From contig NZ_CALEMI010000138.1 in assembly GCF_937910895.1 (NCBI RefSeq), positions 5,280 through 69,279 of the forward strand: a stretch of 64,000 nucleotides of DNA, written 5' to 3'. The notes beneath the pieces were generated by a model. That model ran no database searches and had not been told where the DNA came from. It saw nothing but the letters and a program-made list of their open reading frames with translations. This document shows positions 45,978 to 54,790 of the stretch, piece by piece (positions within the stretch are counted from its first letter, which is position 1; each line of letters opens with the position of its first letter). Source of the DNA: an uncultured Dokdonia sp. (GTDB lineage Bacteria; Bacteroidota; Bacteroidia; Flavobacteriales; Flavobacteriaceae). Both the position numbers and the translations under genes were made by a program.

Positions 45978-47435
45978 TTAAATAGGCTCACTAACTTCAG
46001 GTATGGTTTTTTTTGCTTTCGCGAAAGCGTTATTAATATCATAATCATATCCAAGAATAGACAGTAATTGCTCCGAGGTTTGCTGGTTTGCAAACACCGA
46101 AGTTGTGATCTCTCCATCTTCATTGCGATCTATTAAAATATGTTTAGGTGTTGGGATCAAGCAATGCTGCAATCCACCAAAACCTCCGATGGTCTCTTGA
46201 TAAGCACCGGTATTGAAAAAGCCGATATAGAGTGGTTTTTCTTGAGTAAATTTAGGTAAATAGATTGCATTCATGTGTTGCTCACTGTTGTAATAATCAT
46301 CACTGTCACAGGTAAGACCTCCTAATAAAACGCGTTCATATTCTTTATCCCACCCAGAAATAGGCAACATCACAAACCGTTTATTAATTGCCCAAGTATC
46401 TGGCATTGTGGTGATAAATGAAGAATTAATCATATTCCACTTTTCTCGATCATTTTGTTTTTTCTGATAGAGCACTTCATAAATAGCGCCTCCTGCTTCA
46501 CCTACCGTAAAGCTACCAAATTCTGTAAAGATATTAGGTACATCAACGCCAGCCTCATCACAGGTTTGCTTAATCTGTCGGATGATCTCATCAATCATGT
46601 ACGCATAATCATACTCAAAAGCGAGCGAATTTTTTATAGGAAAACCACCGCCTATATTGAGACTATCAAGCTTTGGATTTTCTTTTTTAAGAGCTACGTA
46701 CACCTTCAAACACTTAGAAAGTTCATTCCAGTAATAAGCTGTATCACGTATCCCTGTATTAATAAAAAAATGTAGCATCTTAAGCGTTACCTTAGGATTG
46801 TCCTTAATCTCACTGTTGTAAAAAGGTACAATATTTCTATATCCTATCCCAAGTCTGGACGTATAAAATTCAAACTTAGGCTCTTCTTCTGATGCAATTC
46901 GGATTCCTATAGTATAGGTGCCGTCTATGACTTCGCTAAGTAAGTTAATTTCTTCATAGTTATCAATAATAGGTATGCAGTTTTTATGTCCGTTATTGAT
47001 AAGTCTTGCAATATTTTGTATGTATTGATCACGTTTAAAACCATTGCTTATAACATAAGTTTCATTCGTTATTTTTCCTTGTGCTTTCAGGTTTTCAACA
47101 ATATCCATATCAAAAGCAGATGAGGTTTCAATATGAATATCATTTTTAAGAGCCTCGTCTAACACGTGTTTAAAGTGTGAGCTCTTGGTGCAATAGCAGT
47201 AATTATATGAGCCTTTATAGTCATTTTCTTTAATTGCATTTGCAAACCATCCTTTTGCTCTGTTTATATTTTCAGATATTTTAGGGAGATATGTAAACTT
47301 TAATGGCGTACCATATTTTGCTGTAAGCGCCATGAGATCAATCCCATGAAAATTGAGTGTATTATTTTTAAGTGTGAACTCCTCTTGTGGGAAATCAAAA
47401 GTTTGATCTATAAGATCAATATATTTTGTTTTCAT
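45978..47435 (-). CDS. speA: arginine decarboxylase (fold type III PLP)
   Basis: YCTKSSHF, SRLG, LNIGGG, TCDSDDYY, GAYQE; directly upstream of speB. Confidence 0.88.
   Translation of the reverse strand: MKTKYIDLIDQTFDFPQEEFTLKNNTLNFHGIDLMALTAKYGTPLKFTYLPKISENINRAKGWFANAIKENDYKGSYNYCYCTKSSHFKHVLDEALKNDIHIETSSAFDMDIVENLKAQGKITNETYVISNGFKRDQYIQNIARLINNGHKNCIPIIDNYEEINLLSEVIDGTYTIGIRIASEEEPKFEFYTSRLGIGYRNIVPFYNSEIKDNPKVTLKMLHFFINTGIRDTAYYWNELSKCLKVYVALKKENPKLDSLNIGGGFPIKNSLAFEYDYAYMIDEIIRQIKQTCDEAGVDVPNIFTEFGSFTVGEAGGAIYEVLYQKKQNDREKWNMINSSFITTMPDTWAINKRFVMLPISGWDKEYERVLLGGLTCDSDDYYNSEQHMNAIYLPKFTQEKPLYIGFFNTGAYQETIGGFGGLQHCLIPTPKHILIDRNEDGEITTSVFANQQTSEQLLSILGYDYDINNAFAKAKKTIPEVSEPI
46015..46028. 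repeat. palindrome copy 8 (speA tail, AFAKA)
   Basis: Perfect 14-mer. Confidence 0.9.
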
Positions 47436-47509
47436 TATAGTGTATGTTTGAAAAATTAGAATGTGTTAGATGTTGCTTGTAAAGCAATTGAAGATATATT
47501 TCTAATAAC

Positions 47510-47680
47510 TCAAATACGAAAGATAAAAATAGTAGAAGGATCAAAGCTTTTTTGCTCCAACAGACGATACATCGTTTTAATTTCAGAAGTCAACCTGATA
47601 ATTCGGTTCCCTATCCCTAGGGTAGCTTTTGGAGTAGACTTCTTTATACTCCTGAGCCCAAATCTGAAAAAATCTTTCAT
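47510..47680 (-). CDS. candidate speA leader peptide (56-aa uORF)
   Basis: Hand translation MKDFFRFGLRSIKKSTPKATLGIGNRIIRLTSEIKTMYRLLEQKSFDPSTIFIFRI*, lying between the promoter box and speA. Confidence 0.55.
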   Translation of the reverse strand: MKDFFRFGLRSIKKSTPKATLGIGNRIIRLTSEIKTMYRLLEQKSFDPSTIFIFRI

Positions 47681-47725
47681 TTAATTAAAGGCAATTCGTT
47701 CTTTAATGTGAACTCATTATCATAA

Positions 47726-47733
47726 CAAACATA
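47726..47733 (-). promoter_or_regulatory. Bacteroidota sigma-A -7 element for the speA leader
   Basis: TATGTTTG matches TAnnTTTG. Confidence 0.55.
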
Positions 47734-47985
47734 CTAAAAAAATGTATTGATTATTTTTTTTTGAAATTTATTTTAATAAAGTAATGATTTATTAACGATA
47801 AAAATACAACTATCTAATTAGCAACGCTTAGAGACTTTTTAGAGTAAAAAATACATATTCTTCACGAATCATTATTTATGGCTATACCCGAAGAGTATGT
47901 TTTATAATTTTCTTATCAAGATATTTGGAGTAATTTATAGGCTCATATTAAAATTGCATATAAGTACATCTTCAAAATTAATAGG

Positions 47986-48171
47986 TTAACAACCATTTGC
48001 TTGATCGGTCTGAGGACAAATTGGACGATCATACGTTTTGGCTGGAGGACAACCCATAGGCCGATCACTTATATCACATATTCCCGATCCTCCCATAATA
48101 GCTTCTGAATCTGTGAGCTTAGAAATTGTCAACTTGTCTAAGGATAATTTTTTTAAAGATTCTTTTCTCAT
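47986..48171 (-). CDS. double-glycine-leader RiPP (class I lanthipeptide-like) precursor
   Basis: Leader KKLSLDKLTISKL..MGG; core has 4 Ser/Thr and 4 Cys. Confidence 0.8.
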   Translation of the reverse strand: MRKESLKKLSLDKLTISKLTDSEAIMGGSGICDISDRPMGCPPAKTYDRPICPQTDQANGC

Positions 48172-48287
48172 CTTTTATTTTTTAGGGTTTAAGATACAAA
48201 AAATACATAGCAAACCAAGTTAAAATGAATCTTAAGCGATGTATGAATCAACTATTACGCACTAAAACATGTAAGGTTTTTATTATT

Positions 48288-49994
48288 TTATGCAGATTTT
48301 TTTAAATTTTTTATATAGTATGAAGGAGTGATGCCTGTTTTTTTCTTGAAAGCTGCTGTAAACGACTCGGCAGAGTTAAAACTTGCTTCTTTGGCAACTC
48401 CTAAAATCGTATAACGATGTAGTGTTGGATTCACTTTTAACTCATTAAGAATATACTCAATACGTAAATCATTAATGTAGTGAATAAATGTCTTTCCCTT
48501 ATACGTATTAATGATTTTAGAAAGGTATTTCGTATTTGTTGACAGCTTCCTTGCCAAAGAACTAATAGTTATAGTACTCTTTAAAAATCCATTCTTAGAT
48601 TCAAAAACAAGCAATTTATCTAAGATCACAGCGACTACGTCTGGATCAATATTAAGGCTTTGAGAAGATGTTTTTAATGACGCCGATTCTTTGCTACTTT
48701 TCGTGGGTTTTTCATTTAACGCAGCAATAATAGTATCAAATCGCTCTCTGTATATTTTATGTTTCCTGATTTGAAGAAAAAACAAGAATGTTATAATAAC
48801 AAACAGAATAAGCAGGGAGAGTACTTTTGTGCTAAGACTTTGATTTTTATTCTTTAATTTTTGAATTAAAAGCTCTTTACTTTTAACTAATTCAGGAGTA
48901 TCAAACTCTGAATTTAATGTATTTGTTGTATGAATTTTCCTAGCGTTCGTAATACTATCAAATCTTATTAATTTATTAATTGTACTTAAGTGTTCTTTGT
49001 AATTATTACTTGCTTTATAATCCTTAATGAGAGAAACATACGCATCTCTTACTTCTGGAAGTATCAAATCCGTTTTTGTAAGCAAAGAGTCAACTTTTAA
49101 AAAATAACCTGTATCGTCTTTTTCATTAGAAATTAGAGATATTTTACCTAAATAAAATTGAGCAATGATATAATATTTCAAATCGTACTGAGAAGTAAGA
49201 TTTGCTAAAGATGCCCCCTTCTGTAAAAAAGAATATGCTTTATCTATGTTTTTTTTATAGAACAAATTAACCCCTTCATTAATCATAGCAACGCTTAATG
49301 CATAGGTATGATCTTTATAAATCTTATCAATTACCAAATCGTAGTAATAAGAAGCCGAGTCATATTTTTTTTCATTCCTATATGATTCTGATAAGTTTAA
49401 AGAGATTTGAACTATCACACTAGAATTTGGAAATTTCCTTTTTTGTTCAAGGTCAAGACACGTTTTATATAATATCAATGCCTCTTTATAATTTCCAATA
49501 TCCTTTTTAATATCTGCTATATTATTAAGACCAATAATTTCATAATCTTTATCATTCTTCTTTTTTGAAAGTCTCAACACCTTAAGATATTGCTGTAGCG
49601 CATTTTCATAATCATACGCATTTTGATAATACAACCCCAACCTATTATATGCGGCTATAGAGTATAAAGAATCGACACTATTACTCTCTGTTAATGACTG
49701 ATTGACAAGATCAAACTGTCTTTCTCTATCGTCTGTATAATAAGAAAGATAATTCAACGCAATAGATCGTTTTATTCTATCATTGGCCGCAGTCGCTTTA
49801 TGTAGATATGCATTAAGATATTGTATAGAAGAGGTCGTATCCTCTGCGTGTTGCGCATATTTTTTGTATAGATACTCATAACTTTCGTTTGCCAATGAAT
49901 CTGGTATTATAGAAGCGCTCTTCTGCCCTAACAAAAGAGAATTGAAACTAAAAATTAACCAAAATAAGAAATAGAACTTTGTATTTGAACGCAT
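48288..49994 (-). CDS. membrane-spanning TPR-sensor AraC-family regulator
   Basis: Signal peptide, TPRs (AYNRLGLYYQNAYDYENALQQY), TM VLSLLILFVIITFLFFL, AraC HTH (LSTNTKYLS..FNSAESFTAAFKKKTGITPSYY). Confidence 0.92.
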   Translation of the reverse strand: MRSNTKFYFLFWLIFSFNSLLLGQKSASIIPDSLANESYEYLYKKYAQHAEDTTSSIQYLNAYLHKATAANDRIKRSIALNYLSYYTDDRERQFDLVNQSLTESNSVDSLYSIAAYNRLGLYYQNAYDYENALQQYLKVLRLSKKKNDKDYEIIGLNNIADIKKDIGNYKEALILYKTCLDLEQKRKFPNSSVIVQISLNLSESYRNEKKYDSASYYYDLVIDKIYKDHTYALSVAMINEGVNLFYKKNIDKAYSFLQKGASLANLTSQYDLKYYIIAQFYLGKISLISNEKDDTGYFLKVDSLLTKTDLILPEVRDAYVSLIKDYKASNNYKEHLSTINKLIRFDSITNARKIHTTNTLNSEFDTPELVKSKELLIQKLKNKNQSLSTKVLSLLILFVIITFLFFLQIRKHKIYRERFDTIIAALNEKPTKSSKESASLKTSSQSLNIDPDVVAVILDKLLVFESKNGFLKSTITISSLARKLSTNTKYLSKIINTYKGKTFIHYINDLRIEYILNELKVNPTLHRYTILGVAKEASFNSAESFTAAFKKKTGITPSYYIKNLKKSA

Positions 49995-50119
49995 ATTTAA
50001 TTTTGAGACTTAGGGGTGCAAACAATTTTGCATCTAAAATAGTTAAATCAAAAGTATCTATTTGCTATGACGCCTGAATAGTCACATTTCACATCACTTA
50101 ATGATGGTTTTAATAGTAC

Positions 50120-50133
50120 GCTTTTGCGAAAGC
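50120..50133. repeat. palindrome variant (one mismatch)
   Basis: TACGCTTTTGCGAAAGCGTA. Confidence 0.8.
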
Positions 50134-50511
50134 GTACACAACATAGACTCCTTCAATTCGATAGTTAAGATTTAAAAACCAATTCGTATAAGACAAAAAA
50201 TAAAAATTCCTACTAGAAAATCTGTAACATAGTATCGTACCGACACGAACTTACCACAGTTATTACATTCTAATCAAAAACACTTCAAATTACTAAATTT
50301 CAAATATTTGTATTTAAAATTAAGTACTTGAATTCGCCGAATTCCTGTAAATTTTTATTGTATCTCCCTAAAAAAAAAGTGAAGTTTGAATATATGAGAT
50401 CGTACAAAAATAATAGCATTTTAGTTTAAAGATATACACACAGTAAACAGACAGACCCCTTGAATGTCTCTAAACGATCAAGGTATTTTAGTAATCATAA
50501 ATAATTAAATT

Positions 50512-50751
50512 ATGAGAGATTTATTAAAAATTGGAAGAAGTTTAAACAGTGTTGAATTAAAAGGAATTACCGCAGGTAGAAATCCTTTTATTTCTGACGG
50601 CTCAGATCAGTGTCAAGTAGGACAGTGCCCTAATGGATTGGTTTGTAACATTGTAAATGGAGAATGCATCATGCCCGGCGGTGGCGGCGGTGGTGGCGGT
50701 GGTGGAATCTGCCCAGAGAATGTTGGACAAAACTGCGATTCTCCAGTTTAA
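50512..50751 (+). CDS. Cys-rich, Gly10-containing peptide with a double-glycine-type leader
   Basis: MRDLLKIGRSLNSVELKGITAG leader, Cx4Cx5Cx6C, Gly10, Cx7C. Confidence 0.8.
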   Translation: MRDLLKIGRSLNSVELKGITAGRNPFISDGSDQCQVGQCPNGLVCNIVNGECIMPGGGGGGGGGGICPENVGQNCDSPV

Positions 50752-50847
50752 AAATATAATATTAAACTTTATAGTTGGGTTGGCTTTTAAAAGCTACCTG
50801 CTACTTTATAAGTAAGTAAATTATAGAGGGTTTAGTGAAATAAGAAC

Positions 50848-50887
50848 ATCATTCAGATATGTGCAAGTTACTACATATCTGGATGAT
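50848..50887 (+). terminator. hairpin downstream of the peptide gene
   Basis: ATCATTCAGATATGT..ACATATCTGGATGAT followed by a T tract; a second weaker hairpin near 50778-50798. Confidence 0.6.
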
Positions 50888-51290
50888 TTTTTTAGCCTCA
50901 TCTCCGTCTGTCATAGCTAAACCATAAGATCCAAACAACTCTTTTGTGAATCTTCTAAAAACTTCATATGTCGTTCTTTAGTACCTTATCTCGTTACTCT
51001 TTATCTCTATGTGTTTAACAAGGCTTGATTTTGAAATATTGTTAATAATATGTCTTCATAAAGCGCTTCTTATTTGTTTCTTGCACACTACAGCAAAACC
51101 TATAAATTTCGGAATCTAAATTTTAGATATGATTAAGGATTTGTAAAATTTCAAGTTAAGATTCTGTAAAATCAGTAACATAAAATCAACCTTTTTATAA
51201 ACTAGAATATATACTAACGTAACAAGCTTTCAAGACTTTGAAATTAATTTTATGAGCATTAATAATCAACTTTATTAAATCAAAAAACTC

Positions 51291-52853
51291 ATGAAAACTT
51301 TCAAATTACTTTTTTTTAAAATACTACTGTTAGTAGTTGTAGGAACCCACATAACGAGCTGTGAAGACGGTGAAGATGGACTTAATGGTATAAACGGTCA
51401 AGATGGCGTAGATGGACAGGATGGTGTCGATGGACAAGACGGACAGGATGGCGACGACTTTGTTATGGAAGAAACTATTTTTGCTGACAAATCCCCTACT
51501 CCTCCGTTGGTAGCAATTACACCTCAATTTAATTATGTGCAAGCGTATTCTTTAATTTCTACTCCAGATGTAATTGGGGAGAATTTCCAACTTGCAGGAT
51601 CTGCCGATGGTGCTGGTTTTTTAGTAGATGGAGATGAATATATATACGTTACAAACTGTGAGGATAGTTATGCTGTGGCTCGTATCCGTTTAGATCAAAA
51701 CCTTATTCCTATTTCTGGCGACTATTTATTAGACTCTGGTGTTGCCGATTTTGCAAGACAATGTTCTGCAACAATGTGGGAAGCTGATATCCATGGAGGC
51801 TCTGAAGATATTTTTTTATCTGCTTCAGAAAGCATTAGTCACGACGTAAAAGCAATTAATCCCCGTGTAACAACACCTACACCACAAGCTGACTTTGGTT
51901 TAGATGCTTTAGGAGAATTTTCTTGGGAAAATGCAGTCCCACTTCCTCAAAATGCATATCCTAATGCCACTGTAATTATAGGAGGAGACGATGATTCTAG
52001 TGGTTCAGAAGGTCAAATAACGATGTATTACTCTACAAATGGAGATGCTGATTTTAATAACGGTAGTATCTATGTATTACGTTACAAACAAATATCTGAT
52101 GGCGCTGGAGGCGTAGAAGATGTTGTAGCAAATACGCAATACAATGAGTCGTCATTAGATTTTGGGAGCTCATACGATGTTGAGTTTGTAGAAATTCCAA
52201 ACGGTGCTTCTCTTACTAAAAATGAAATGGAAACTGCCTGTAATGATGTATTTGCTTCACAATTTATGCGTGTAGAAGATATTGATTATCAAAAAGGAAG
52301 TGACTCAAATGCAAGAAATCTATTTGTAGCTGTTACCGGTAGGGGACCTGGACAAGGAACATACAACGATTGGGGAACCGTTTATAAATTGACATTAGAT
52401 CCTTCAAATCCTTTAGAAGGAACCCTTACACAAATTGTAAGTGGGAATACAGATACTAACAATGCAGATGGTAATCTTCCTGAGCTTCAAAGCCCAGACA
52501 ACATTACAGTAACAGAAAACTTTGTATATATTCAAGAAGATCCTAACTCTTTCAGTAGAGGGCATGCCGCTTACATTTATCAAACAGATATTAATGGAAA
52601 TAATCCCGTAGTCGTTCTTGAACTAGTTGTACGTATGGATCTTGCTGAAAATAATAGCACTGGATTAAACGGAGAATTTGGAGCACTTATCGATATTTCT
52701 GATAAAATAGGAGAACCTAATACCTTCTTATTAAACATACAGCCTCATTATTGGACAAGTGACGAATTTGCAGGATTAGATGGACACATCAACGCTACAA
52801 ATGAAGATCGCCAAGCATCTCAAGTGGTTATCTTAAGGGGGCTTCCAAGATAA
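51291..52853 (+). CDS. PhoX-like (DUF839) lipoprotein with a collagen-like linker
   Basis: Lipobox ITSC, G-X-Y repeats, TNCED, RQCSAT, WENAV, RVEDIDY, SPDNI, IQED. Confidence 0.82.
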   Translation: MKTFKLLFFKILLLVVVGTHITSCEDGEDGLNGINGQDGVDGQDGVDGQDGQDGDDFVMEETIFADKSPTPPLVAITPQFNYVQAYSLISTPDVIGENFQLAGSADGAGFLVDGDEYIYVTNCEDSYAVARIRLDQNLIPISGDYLLDSGVADFARQCSATMWEADIHGGSEDIFLSASESISHDVKAINPRVTTPTPQADFGLDALGEFSWENAVPLPQNAYPNATVIIGGDDDSSGSEGQITMYYSTNGDADFNNGSIYVLRYKQISDGAGGVEDVVANTQYNESSLDFGSSYDVEFVEIPNGASLTKNEMETACNDVFASQFMRVEDIDYQKGSDSNARNLFVAVTGRGPGQGTYNDWGTVYKLTLDPSNPLEGTLTQIVSGNTDTNNADGNLPELQSPDNITVTENFVYIQEDPNSFSRGHAAYIYQTDINGNNPVVVLELVVRMDLAENNSTGLNGEFGALIDISDKIGEPNTFLLNIQPHYWTSDEFAGLDGHINATNEDRQASQVVILRGLPR

Positions 52854-52900
52854 CAAGATCTAGTATTAGCCAATTATATTTCATTCTCGTTTTAGTATCA

Positions 52901-52923
52901 AGCAACCCTTTATAAGGGTTGCT
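52901..52923 (+). terminator. intrinsic terminator hairpin
   Basis: AGCAACCCTT-tat-AAGGGTTGCT followed by TTCTT. Confidence 0.7.
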
Positions 52924-52948
52924 TTCTTAACATATATGTCTATTTCTT

Positions 52949-54790
52949 ATGAGCACTATAAACTACTCTTCACAAATCAAATTTTCTCTTTTAAACATTT
53001 TTATTTTTGGATTTTTCTTTTCTTGTAACGAAAACTCAAAAGATACTTCTTACATACAAACCTTAGAACCTGATTGGAAAAGCACACAAGTATTATATCT
53101 ACAAGAAATCAATAAAACGATTGTCTTATTAGATAGCCTAAAAGACATATCTCCTAACGCACCAGAAGCCAAAGAAATATTTAAAAAGATACGTATTGCA
53201 TTTAAAAAAGCAGAACCTTATGCTTCGTATCTTAATCCTGAAGTAGGACATCGCATTAACAGTCCCGCCCTACCTATTTATAAAGAAGACAATGGTAAAA
53301 CTTTATATCCCATAGGATTACAAAAAATAGAGGAAAGTATTTATGAAGGAGAAAGCTCTAAAAAACAGTATAAAAACGAGTTAAAAACAACTATTGGATT
53401 ATTGAATAGTCTTAAAAAAAGTATTGAAAAAAGAGAGCTTACAGCGCAACGTTATTTCATTGCAACACACCAACAATTATTTCGTGTATTAAGTTTTTCT
53501 ATCTCAGGATTTGACACTCCTGTAAGCCAATTAGGAATTCAAGAAAGTAGGATCTCACTACAAAACCTATATGATAGCTATGTTATAAGCATTCAGAAGA
53601 TTATTCAATCTAAGAATAAAGATTTAGATATGACGTTCAAAAAACAGATAGAAGCGGCGACATACTATACCGCATCAAATCCAGACTTTGACAGCTTTGA
53701 TCGCTATACATTTATCAAAGAATATCTAAACCCTATCACACGCTCTTGGGTCGCTATTAGAAAAACATCTAAATTATGGGAGGGTACAAACTCCCAACCA
53801 TTTAATTTTGATGCACCTACTTTCTTTGAAAATGATAGTTATAATGTCTCTTTCTTTATTTCAGGAACTAATAAAAAACCTACTGATGCACAAATAAAAT
53901 TAGGTAAAAAACTATTCTTTGATAAAAAATTATCTGCAAACAATCAAATGGCATGTGCTACGTGTCACATTCCTTCCAAAGCATACACGGATGGTCTTAT
54001 GCTAAATAAGGGAAATAAAGGAAATAATTTAAAACGCAACACCCCAACTTTAATAAATACCATATTTCAAAAGAATTTCTTTTGGGATGGACGCTCACAT
54101 ACATTGATGGATCAAGTGTCATCTGTTTTTACAAATACAGACGAATTTAACTCTAATGTTCATACGTTTTCAAAAGATATTTTACAGGATTCTACATATA
54201 AAAATCTTTTTCAAGAAGCCTACCGCGGAGTGTCAAATCGAAATATTGATGTTATAAAAGCGATTGCTGCGTATGTAGCAACTCTTAATGGGTTTAATTC
54301 AAAATTCGATCGCAATATGAGAGGAGAGGAAGACACATTTACGCAAAGTGAAAAAGAAGGTATGAACTTGTTTATGGGAAAAGCACTTTGTGCTACATGT
54401 CACTTTATACCACTTACCAATGGTACAGTACCTCCGTTTTTTCAAGAGACAGAACGCGAAGTAATAGGCGTTCCTAATACCTCTGAAAATAGAGCTCTTG
54501 ATGATGACTTAGGGTATTACTGGAAGTTTAATGAGTCCCTACACAAAGGTATGTTTAAAACCCCTACCGTACGTAATGCATCATTAACCGCACCGTATAT
54601 GCACAATGGCGTATATAATACTTTAGAAGAAGTGATAGACTTCTATAACAAAGGCGGCGGTGGTGGATTAGGTTTTGATCTAGAACACCAAACTTTACCT
54701 TTTGACAATTTGAAATTAACAGATAAAGAGCAACGAGCACTTGTTGATTTTGTAAAGACCTTAACCGATACACAAGTAGATTCTTATTAA
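52949..54790 (+). CDS. di-heme cytochrome c peroxidase (MauG-like) lipoprotein
   Basis: Two CATCH motifs, RNTPTL, FWDGR, FKTPTVRN..PYMHNG. Confidence 0.9.
   Translation: MSTINYSSQIKFSLLNIFIFGFFFSCNENSKDTSYIQTLEPDWKSTQVLYLQEINKTIVLLDSLKDISPNAPEAKEIFKKIRIAFKKAEPYASYLNPEVGHRINSPALPIYKEDNGKTLYPIGLQKIEESIYEGESSKKQYKNELKTTIGLLNSLKKSIEKRELTAQRYFIATHQQLFRVLSFSISGFDTPVSQLGIQESRISLQNLYDSYVISIQKIIQSKNKDLDMTFKKQIEAATYYTASNPDFDSFDRYTFIKEYLNPITRSWVAIRKTSKLWEGTNSQPFNFDAPTFFENDSYNVSFFISGTNKKPTDAQIKLGKKLFFDKKLSANNQMACATCHIPSKAYTDGLMLNKGNKGNNLKRNTPTLINTIFQKNFFWDGRSHTLMDQVSSVFTNTDEFNSNVHTFSKDILQDSTYKNLFQEAYRGVSNRNIDVIKAIAAYVATLNGFNSKFDRNMRGEEDTFTQSEKEGMNLFMGKALCATCHFIPLTNGTVPPFFQETEREVIGVPNTSENRALDDDLGYYWKFNESLHKGMFKTPTVRNASLTAPYMHNGVYNTLEEVIDFYNKGGGGGLGFDLEHQTLPFDNLKLTDKEQRALVDFVKTLTDTQVDSY

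Follow-up and report, generated by a model that had tools for sequence, protein, structure and literature searches.

The window analysed here is a stretch of 64,000 nucleotides (bases 5280-69279 of contig C138) from the 4.8 Mb genome of a marine Dokdonia-like flavobacterium. We describe a three-gene cassette within it, in which the gene for a predicted transmembrane transcription regulator is flanked by two genes for small peptides with double-glycine (GG) leaders. The regulator, an open reading frame (ORF) of 568 aa, occupies 48288-49994 of the minus strand. Peptide 1 (61 aa) follows it on the same strand at 47986-48171, behind a spacer of 116 bp, and peptide 2 (79 aa) is divergent from the regulator, lying on the plus strand at 50512-50751 across an intergenic region of 517 bp. 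A sequence-only reading of this DNA had given the positions of all three ORFs and the lengths of both gaps, and these are exact. It had also proposed that a regulator flanked by two secreted-type peptides forms a cassette. This three-gene layout is recurrent and conserved. Peptide 1 carries a GG leader and peptide 2 a putative one of a different class, and peptide 1 has the features of a class I lanthipeptide-type precursor.

The linkage between regulator and peptide genes extends well beyond this locus. Using phmmer against all ORFs of the genome, we identified eight regulator paralogues on six contigs (C138, C31 with three copies, C139, C52, C11 and C93), and the seven full-length aligned paralogues are 23-41% identical to the window regulator. 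Type-1 GG peptides, the class to which peptide 1 belongs, were located with a leader hidden Markov model (HMM), which found approximately 21 of them in 4.8 Mb. All eight paralogues have a co-directional gene for a GG-leader, Ser/Thr/Cys-rich peptide directly downstream, at no more than 700 bp; the gaps measure 82-175 bp, with a single one of ~670 bp. If 21 peptides were placed randomly in 4.8 Mb, the expected number of regulators with such a neighbour would be ~0.012, and the adjacency is far beyond chance. The enrichment of peptide genes beside such regulators had been put forward in the sequence-only reading as one way to check its proposal, and the outcome is strongly positive both in this genome and across Flavobacteriaceae. 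The downstream neighbours were also compared, and the genes beyond the peptides are not homologous across the eight loci; only S8/S9 peptidases recur, in some clades only (an S9 prolyl oligopeptidase comes after the peptide on C52, an S8 subtilase on C11). Since the eight loci have unrelated flanks, the conserved unit is the regulator together with its peptide, and we regard it as very probable that the two form a functional module.

The full layout, consisting of a divergent cysteine-rich peptide, a regulator and a lanthipeptide-type peptide, is found again at C31:16.5-19.2 kb and C31:19.4-22.0 kb. These two loci hold the closest paralogues of the window regulator, and upstream of each paralogue lies a divergent gene for a GG-leader peptide rich in cysteine; the HMM missed one of these two peptides, which was spotted by eye. 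The corresponding locus in Dokdonia pacifica and Dokdonia sp. 807 has peptides with the leader class of peptide 2 (type 2 hereafter), an intergenic region of ~400-500 bp, the divergent regulator and a peptide 1-type gene, and each of these genomes carries a second three-gene cassette (four loci in two genomes). Much of this three-gene recurrence goes back to common descent rather than to many independent events.

The regulator combines four elements, all encoded on the minus strand: a predicted signal peptide (aa 1-23, nt 49926-49994), a superhelix of eight tetratricopeptide repeats (TPR; aa 32-351, nt 48942-49901), a stalk with a membrane helix (the latter at aa 391-412, nt 48759-48824) and an AraC-type double helix-turn-helix (HTH; aa 451-567, nt 48294-48644). 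These assignments draw on Pfam, hydropathy, AlphaFold2, Foldseek and the family alignment. Pfam matches HTH_18 (49.9 bits, cut-off 33.6) and HTH_AraC (35.9 bits, cut-off 26.6) cover residues 480-562, and matches to TPR_12, TPR_2 and TPR_10 lie at residues 113-185. No curated NCBIfam model covers the full length of the protein. A profile search against the PDB matches the AraC-type domains, including ToxT at 6e-7. By its C-terminal double HTH, the regulator can be assigned to the AraC/XylS family.

We modelled the regulator with AlphaFold2 from an alignment of 73 sequences (the window protein and 72 database homologues) and obtained a mean predicted local distance difference test score (pLDDT) of 88.4. 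The model has an N-terminal hydrophobic helix at residues 2-23, a continuous superhelix of ~16 helices at 32-351, a single very long helix at 366-427, a disordered linker and then the AraC helical bundle at 451-567. The long helix holds the sole strongly hydrophobic segment, at 391-412 and strongest at 391-409, with the basic stretch RKHKIYRER behind it. In the family alignment, Gln24, the first residue past the N-terminal hydrophobic segment, is kept in at least 90% of homologues, as in the Q-rule described for signal peptidase I substrates of Bacteroidetes (PMC5837995). The topology predicted from the conservation of Gln24 and, by the positive-inside rule, from the position of RKHKIYRER puts the TPR domain in the periplasm and the AraC domain in the cytoplasm. 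The topology proposed from the sequence (periplasmic TPR, one membrane helix, cytoplasmic AraC domain) is therefore backed by both the model and this near-invariant glutamine. One public gene call (P0001, 535 aa) starts at residue 34, which is 33 codons past the ATG at 49994 (49896-49994), and so would drop the predicted signal peptide; conserved N-termini among the paralogues support the longer start.

In fold and profile comparisons, the TPR domain matches LGN/Pins, kinesin light chain (KLC) and OGT first, with NprR and RapI lower (Foldseek ranks 40 and 44). The modelled resemblance to peptide-binding superhelices is compatible with a peptide ligand and not specific for one, and the likeness to NprR and RapI appears generic. 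Within the clade, divergence is faster in the TPR domain (mean identity 46%) than in the HTH domain (69%).

The leader of peptide 1, MRKESLKKLSLDKLTISKLTDSEAIMGG, reads as LxLxKx5L...GG, a leader motif described for class I LanA peptides in Bacteroidetes (Walker et al. 2020, PMC7268733). The peptide scores 25.0 bits against NF038153 (lant_leader_L1a, ‘class I lanthipeptide’), for which the curated cut-off is 22. Its core of 33 aa contains four Cys, each with a Ser or Thr ahead of it (S-x2-C, then S/T-x5-C three times), a spacing that is loosely retained among orthologues. Orthologues and paralogues downstream of related regulators share the motifs GG-SG..IC, CP and ..NGC. Leader and core together identify peptide 1, at the level of sequence, as a class I lanthipeptide-type precursor.

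No LanB, LanC or C39 transporter is encoded within the window, and peptide 1 is thus not co-encoded with such machinery. Elsewhere, the genome encodes three LanB/LanC pairs (C31, C15 and C66), and C39 ABC transporters of full length are found twice (C31 and C85). Peptide 1 is an orphan precursor, which would be modified in trans by a remote LanB/LanC pair. The cluster on C31 is itself headed by a regulator paralogue: its order is VKOR-thioredoxin, regulator paralogue, four precursors, LanC, split LanB and C39 transporter. The precursor adjacent to the regulator in this cluster (DCLPTE type) is unlike the three near-identical structural precursors (HCCPT...CPPPG.QCY). The whole region, C31:16574-33796 (L021), forms a ‘super-locus’, in which two full cassettes precede the VKOR-thioredoxin fusion and the LanBC cluster of the third regulator.

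Peptide 2 has a leader of a second GG class, MRDLLKIGRSLNSVELKGITAG, and a core with six Cys and a tract of ten Gly. The leader ends in AG, and those of its orthologues and paralogues end in GG, GA, AG or AS. Among curated families, neither peptide 2 nor the type-2 leader class has a match. We built an HMM from seven leaders of this class, against which the leader of peptide 2 scores 40 bits. With this model, the genome yields 44 members at E < 0.01, a number that rises to ~55-60 when the threshold is relaxed, and every core is cysteine-rich. In D. pacifica, an orthologue of peptide 2 occupies the same divergent position and shares the ending ICPENVG.NCDSPV, and Dokdonia sp. 807 has a related copy. 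The Gly tract (50659-50700) is a (GGN)n microsatellite of variable length, with 10 Gly here and 6 both in a paralogue on C161 and in Dokdonia sp. 807; in D. pacifica, the tract is interrupted (GGGDYPGGGG). Overall, the genome carries ~45-60 type-2 genes (leader M.K.L..LG..L...EQK.I.GG) and ~21-24 lanthipeptide-type genes, a total of ~65-80. Many of these GG-leader genes occur in tandem (e.g. C95:1750-3812, C8:8989-10482 and C160:25110-32254), and most are below the usual ORF cut-offs.

Peptide 2 is followed on the plus strand by an intrinsic terminator at 50848-50894, found by a terminator scan, with a 16-bp stem and then a T-run (-41.8 kcal/mol, z = -4.7, with none of 200 shuffled sequences as stable). 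Because it has its own strong terminator, peptide 2 is taken to be monocistronic. For the same reason, we ruled out as members of the cassette the two genes beyond it (51291-54790), which encode a 520-aa lipoprotein, whose N-terminal GxDGxDG repeats resemble collagen and which otherwise matches no family, and a 613-aa protein with a di-haem cytochrome c peroxidase/MauG domain. The lipoprotein is 90% identical to its D. pacifica counterpart over the 433 residues compared, against 55% for the neighbouring regulator, and the synteny of the two genes with the peptide 2 block is retained in D. pacifica.

In the spacer between regulator and peptide 1 (48172-48287, minus strand), the T-rich sequence TATTTTTTG resembles a -7 box and lies ~30 nt upstream of the start codon of peptide 1. 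No terminator was found in this spacer, where the RNA fold is no better than shuffled sequence (z = +0.83), and the equivalent spacers in Dokdonia measure 40-83 bp; peptide 1 is therefore likely to be co-transcribed with the regulator. An Rfam scan of 47400-51400 returned nothing credible.

The Bacteroidota -7 promoter consensus is TAnnTTTG. A match to it on the minus strand, TACTTTTG (50049-50056), lies 55-62 nt upstream of the regulator ATG, within a block that is conserved in an alignment of five Dokdonia-type upstream regions, and is likely to be the regulator promoter. Our promoter calls use position and conservation only, since matches to TAnnTTTG over the whole window are at chance level (97 found, 92 expected). 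A scan for sigma-70 promoters, a consensus not used by this organism, is likewise at chance (25 found, 20.9 expected).

The same intergenic region holds a palindrome. The sequence-only reading had pointed to AATTCGCCGAATT at 50331-50343, which is present and proves to be a conserved and rare cis-element: it is the core of the 15-bp palindrome GAATTCGCCGAATTC (50330-50344), which abuts the 13-mer CTGTAAATTTTTA (50345-50357), and together they form a candidate operator at 50330-50357. The palindrome core ATTC-N3-GAAT is kept in all five Dokdonia-type upstream regions, where the spacers vary and changes in the arms compensate, and both of the closest C31 paralogues have the palindrome twice upstream, exactly 22 bp apart. 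The perfect form, GAATTC-N3-GAATTC, is found only twice in 4.8 Mb (50330-50344 and C27:22390), each time <200 bp upstream of a cysteine-rich GG-peptide gene. Both perfect palindromes abut the 13-mer, which has three copies in the genome, and the two regions otherwise share nothing. The palindrome and 13-mer on C27 (C27:22116-22424) lie 74 bp upstream of an orphan type-2 cysteine-rich peptide gene with no regulator nearby, which makes this gene a candidate trans target of the window regulator. Two perfect palindromes with a shared 13-mer in otherwise unrelated regions point to a discrete operator and a small trans-acting regulon.

Closer to peptide 2, an inverted repeat that we call Block A, CTTGAATGTCTCTAAACGATCAAG (50459-50482, plus strand), has the conserved pattern CTTGA-N14-TCAAG and is followed directly by a -7-like box, TATTTTAG (50484-50491, plus strand), ~20 nt before the peptide 2 ATG. 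Both Dokdonia sp. 807 and D. pacifica retain Block A ahead of their peptide 2-type genes, and it is recognisable at the divergent peptide of the first C31 cassette. The two elements may represent an activator site and the promoter of peptide 2. Two further sites named in the sequence-only reading fared less well. The 9-mer TCGTACCGA is indeed at 50235-50243, but it is weak, as its arms of 3 bp are not statistically meaningful alone and its conservation is only moderate. The variant of an ‘iterated palindrome’ is also present, as GTACGCTTTTGCGAAAGCGTAC at 50116-50137, but it is not specific to the locus: we rejected it as a cassette-specific site because it is a generic repeat with 562 genome copies. 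These copies share a repetitive extragenic palindrome (REP)-like perfect palindrome of the form (G/A)TACGCTTTCGCGAAAGCGTA(T/C), of which the window holds five (4347, 9471, 22798, 50116 and 55661), and two Dokdonia genomes have this palindrome in the matching intergenic position as well.

Dokdonia species are the closest relatives. Family matches at E <= 1e-20 were found in 82 of 200 sampled Flavobacteriaceae genera, several of them with tandem arrays of 3-7 copies. A sample of 400 other genomes from across the phylum yielded the family almost exclusively in Flavobacteriaceae, besides a small number of families that belong to the same order or class. We surveyed 92 full-length homologues with their flanks and seven from this genome, and 34 of these 99 have a co-directional GG-leader peptide within ~300 bp downstream. 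The trait is clustered on a maximum-likelihood tree, requiring 13 changes compared with a mean of 28 when shuffled (none of 500 shuffles was as low). The clade of the window regulator has 100% support, with a peptide in seven of its eight members, and one large clade in housekeeping synteny is essentially peptide-free. The TPR-transmembrane-AraC family is thus broader than its peptide-linked clades, and approximately two-thirds of the sampled members have no adjacent peptide gene. Where peptides are present, their family is specific to each regulator clade: SG..IC...NGC peptides, DCLPTE peptides, or acidic peptides followed by S8/S9 peptidases. We also considered co-divergence of peptide and TPR domain as evidence for binding and rejected it, since the correlation (r = 0.85) compares with r = 0.88 for the HTH domain and reflects shared history.

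The order regulator, peptide, S8 peptidase is found in Kordia algicida (L063) and Flavobacterium amniphilum (L065). The clades with this kind of arrangement comprise C11:1503-5234 and C52:153641-158518 in the present genome and, elsewhere, L063, L065, L031, L035, L036, L041, L046, L048, L050, L051 and L053. Their peptides are acidic, Gly/Asp/Thr-rich and GG-leader-bearing with zero or few Cys, and the gene after them encodes either an S8 subtilase that is a lipoprotein or an S9 prolyl oligopeptidase. The S8 and S9 peptidase families include known macrocyclases and leader peptidases of peptides that are made by ribosomes and modified after translation (RiPPs). Head-to-tail arrays of 3-7 full-length regulators with almost no spacer are found at L069 (G100:C1:1053300-1068000), L074 (G139:C1:1584400-1604300) and L091; at L074, a GG-leader peptide is found only after the last regulator gene. 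A distant homologue of Chryseobacterium type (L064) is on an apparent conjugative or mobilisable element (RteC, relaxase, MobC and a TraG-like protein), where it adjoins a MauE-domain protein, a DUF6520 protein and an S9 peptidase.

Taking these observations together, our preferred model is an autoinducing switch. The regulator would be exported with cleavage of its signal peptide, so that the TPR superhelix stands in the periplasm and one membrane helix joins it to the cytoplasmic AraC domain. LanB/LanC, acting in trans, would dehydrate and cyclise peptide 1, which a C39 peptidase-ABC transporter would then cleave at GG and export. The regulator would bind the GAATTC-N3-GAATTC element, the inverted repeat beside the peptide 2 promoter, or both, and so control its own operon (regulator and peptide 1) and the divergent peptide 2, and maybe also the C27 peptide gene. 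The periplasmic TPR groove would sense an exported peptide, most probably mature peptide 1, making the cassette an autoinducing switch for antimicrobial-type peptides. We hold this model, in which the regulator controls the flanking GG-leader peptides and its TPR domain senses an exported one, tentatively, as close to evenly balanced and tipped slightly toward doubt. A more general proposal is that the family represents extracytoplasmic peptide-pheromone receptors, in which the peptide from the adjacent gene, probably lanthionine-bridged, binds, in its mature form, the TPR groove of its own receptor and induces itself and a set of cysteine-rich, bacteriocin-like peptides; this we consider unlikely as matters stand.

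Several points weigh against the autoinduction model. The fact that about two-thirds of family members lack an adjacent peptide, some of them in housekeeping synteny, argues that the TPR domain is not intrinsically a peptide sensor, and tandem arrays of 6-7 regulators occur without intervening peptides. GG-leader peptides exported by a peptidase-containing ABC transporter with its membrane fusion and outer membrane proteins (PCAT/MFP/OMP) leave the cell and would need to re-enter the periplasm. Measured from the palindrome, the likely promoter of the regulator is ~280 bp away and the start codon of peptide 2 ~170 bp, which is unusual for a simple AraC-type activator site, and no motif common to ten regulator-to-peptide spacers was seen. 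With ~45-60 type-2 genes in the genome, the adjacency of peptide 2 could stem in part from peptide-gene islands, and the correlated divergence of peptides and TPR domains is explained equally well by a shared duplication history. Finally, SusR, with the same membrane architecture, senses a sugar, maltose (PMC3878776).

This last precedent, together with the peptide-free members beside unrelated genes (beta-lactamase-like lipoproteins and housekeeping genes), where the TPR domain senses other things, also fits an explanation that we regard as a real possibility, though on the doubtful side: the regulator would be a pathway-specific control of flanking RiPP or bacteriocin genes, the peptides would be output only, and the TPR domain would sense another cue, such as envelope stress, a competitor product, a nutrient or oligosaccharide (as SusR does) or a protein partner. 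The evidence from linkage and from the cis-elements fits this explanation equally well. What would favour the peptide as ligand, and speaks against a pure output role, is the position of the peptide gene immediately downstream of the receptor gene, probably on the same transcript, and the existence of clade-specific peptide families, a combination of gene order and clade specificity that is the signature of receptor-pheromone pairs (plcR-papR, nprR-nprX and the induction peptide-histidine kinase-response regulator operons). The DCLPTE peptide adjacent to the regulator in the LanBC cluster, which differs from the three structural precursors after it, and the faster divergence of the TPR domain appear to favour it too.

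The periplasmic sensor, the adjacent antimicrobial-type peptides and the VKOR-thioredoxin gene at C31 would also suit a sensor for immunity or resistance, on the model of Bce/LanFEG-type regulators in Firmicutes, that recognises lanthipeptides or bacteriocins in the periplasm, whether self-made or foreign, and induces remote protection genes, with the peptides merely co-inherited; the many-paralogue regulator arrays could then serve to detect many foreign peptides. We consider this improbable: no transporter or immunity-like gene is conserved beside the cassettes, whose downstream neighbours vary by locus, and the conserved cis-elements lie in the intergenic region of the cassette and before another peptide gene, not before transporters. 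That there is no functional link at all, with peptide genes accumulating in variable islands and duplicating with whatever adjoins them, seems very improbable indeed. The ~65-80 GG-leader peptide genes of this genome are often clustered, several cassettes are paralogous duplicates and so not independent, and the Chryseobacterium homologue is on a mobile element, all of which would fit such a history. Against it, paralogues with only 23-41% identity keep strand and short gap in eight of eight cases on six contigs with unrelated flanks, the same order recurs in Kordia, Flavobacterium and many other Flavobacteriaceae genera, and short cis-elements are conserved amid diverged surrounding DNA.

Under the autoinduction model, the cassette invites comparison with several known systems. 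The RRNPP pairs of Firmicutes and phages (PlcR-PapR, NprR-NprX, Rap-Phr, Rgg-SHP, ComR-ComS and AimR-AimP) likewise combine a TPR sensor and a DNA-binding domain in one protein and place the receptor gene before that of a small exported pro-peptide, as found here for eight of eight paralogues and 34 of 99 homologues. Further parallels are the many diverging paralogous cassettes per genome and a TPR fold resembling NprR and RapI. The differences are considerable: the TPR domain is N-terminal here and the HTH C-terminal and AraC-type, whereas RRNPP proteins have an N-terminal XRE-type HTH (or phosphatase) and a C-terminal TPR domain; they are soluble and cytoplasmic, whereas this receptor is predicted to be membrane-anchored with an extracytoplasmic TPR domain, needing no Opp re-import; and the peptide here, which probably carries lanthionine, bears a GG leader suited to export by a C39 ABC transporter, in a Gram-negative host of the Bacteroidota. 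The relation to RRNPP would be at most one of analogy, without homologous membership.

Class II bacteriocin three-component systems (plantaricin A, sakacin P) consist of a GG-leader induction peptide, a histidine kinase and a response regulator, and nisin and subtilin autoinduce through LanRK. The cassette resembles these in having a GG-leader peptide gene in an operon with its presumed sensor, separate promoters for effectors and a lanthipeptide as a possible inducer of itself, but it has no histidine kinase or response regulator, as a single transmembrane polypeptide is predicted both to sense and to bind DNA. In SusR, ToxR and CadC, too, a single protein joins a sensor in the periplasm, through one membrane helix, to a DNA-binding domain in the cytoplasm. 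The match is architectural only. The DNA-binding domain of SusR is not AraC-like, that of ToxR and CadC is N-terminal and none is paired with a peptide gene; SusR is a maltose sensor controlling a polysaccharide utilisation locus, with a DNA-binding domain that is reported to be unlike other families (PMC3878776). Class I lanthipeptide clusters of pinensin type in Bacteroidota (PMC7268733) resemble the present system in the leader and Ser/Thr-Cys core of peptide 1, in the LanC, split LanB and C39 transporter found in the genome, and in that one regulator paralogue heads such a cluster; they differ in that peptide 1 is an orphan, far from LanB/LanC.

In the accessible literature, outside which most subscription journals fall, we found no description of the pairing of this regulator with a peptide or of such a regulator for lanthipeptide clusters, and nothing on the regulation of lanthipeptide or GG-leader peptide genes in Bacteroidota. 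Lanthipeptide clusters of this phylum are described in the literature as often silent in culture. The regulators of the peptide clades offer a lever here, since over-expressing or inducing them may open up cryptic peptide clusters. They also provide a handle for genome mining, in which small ORFs downstream of peptide-clade regulators are candidate orphan precursors.

To our knowledge, there is no established peptide quorum-sensing system in Bacteroidota. The cassette is a concrete candidate for extracytoplasmic peptide sensing by a single transmembrane transcription factor. If the pheromone-receptor proposal were true, the family would be the counterpart, in a single protein, of both RRNPP and the three-component quorum sensing of bacteriocins, and each genome would have several orthogonal channels. 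If the ligand is not the peptide, the cassette would still represent a type of RiPP regulator in Bacteroidota for which the accessible literature holds no description.

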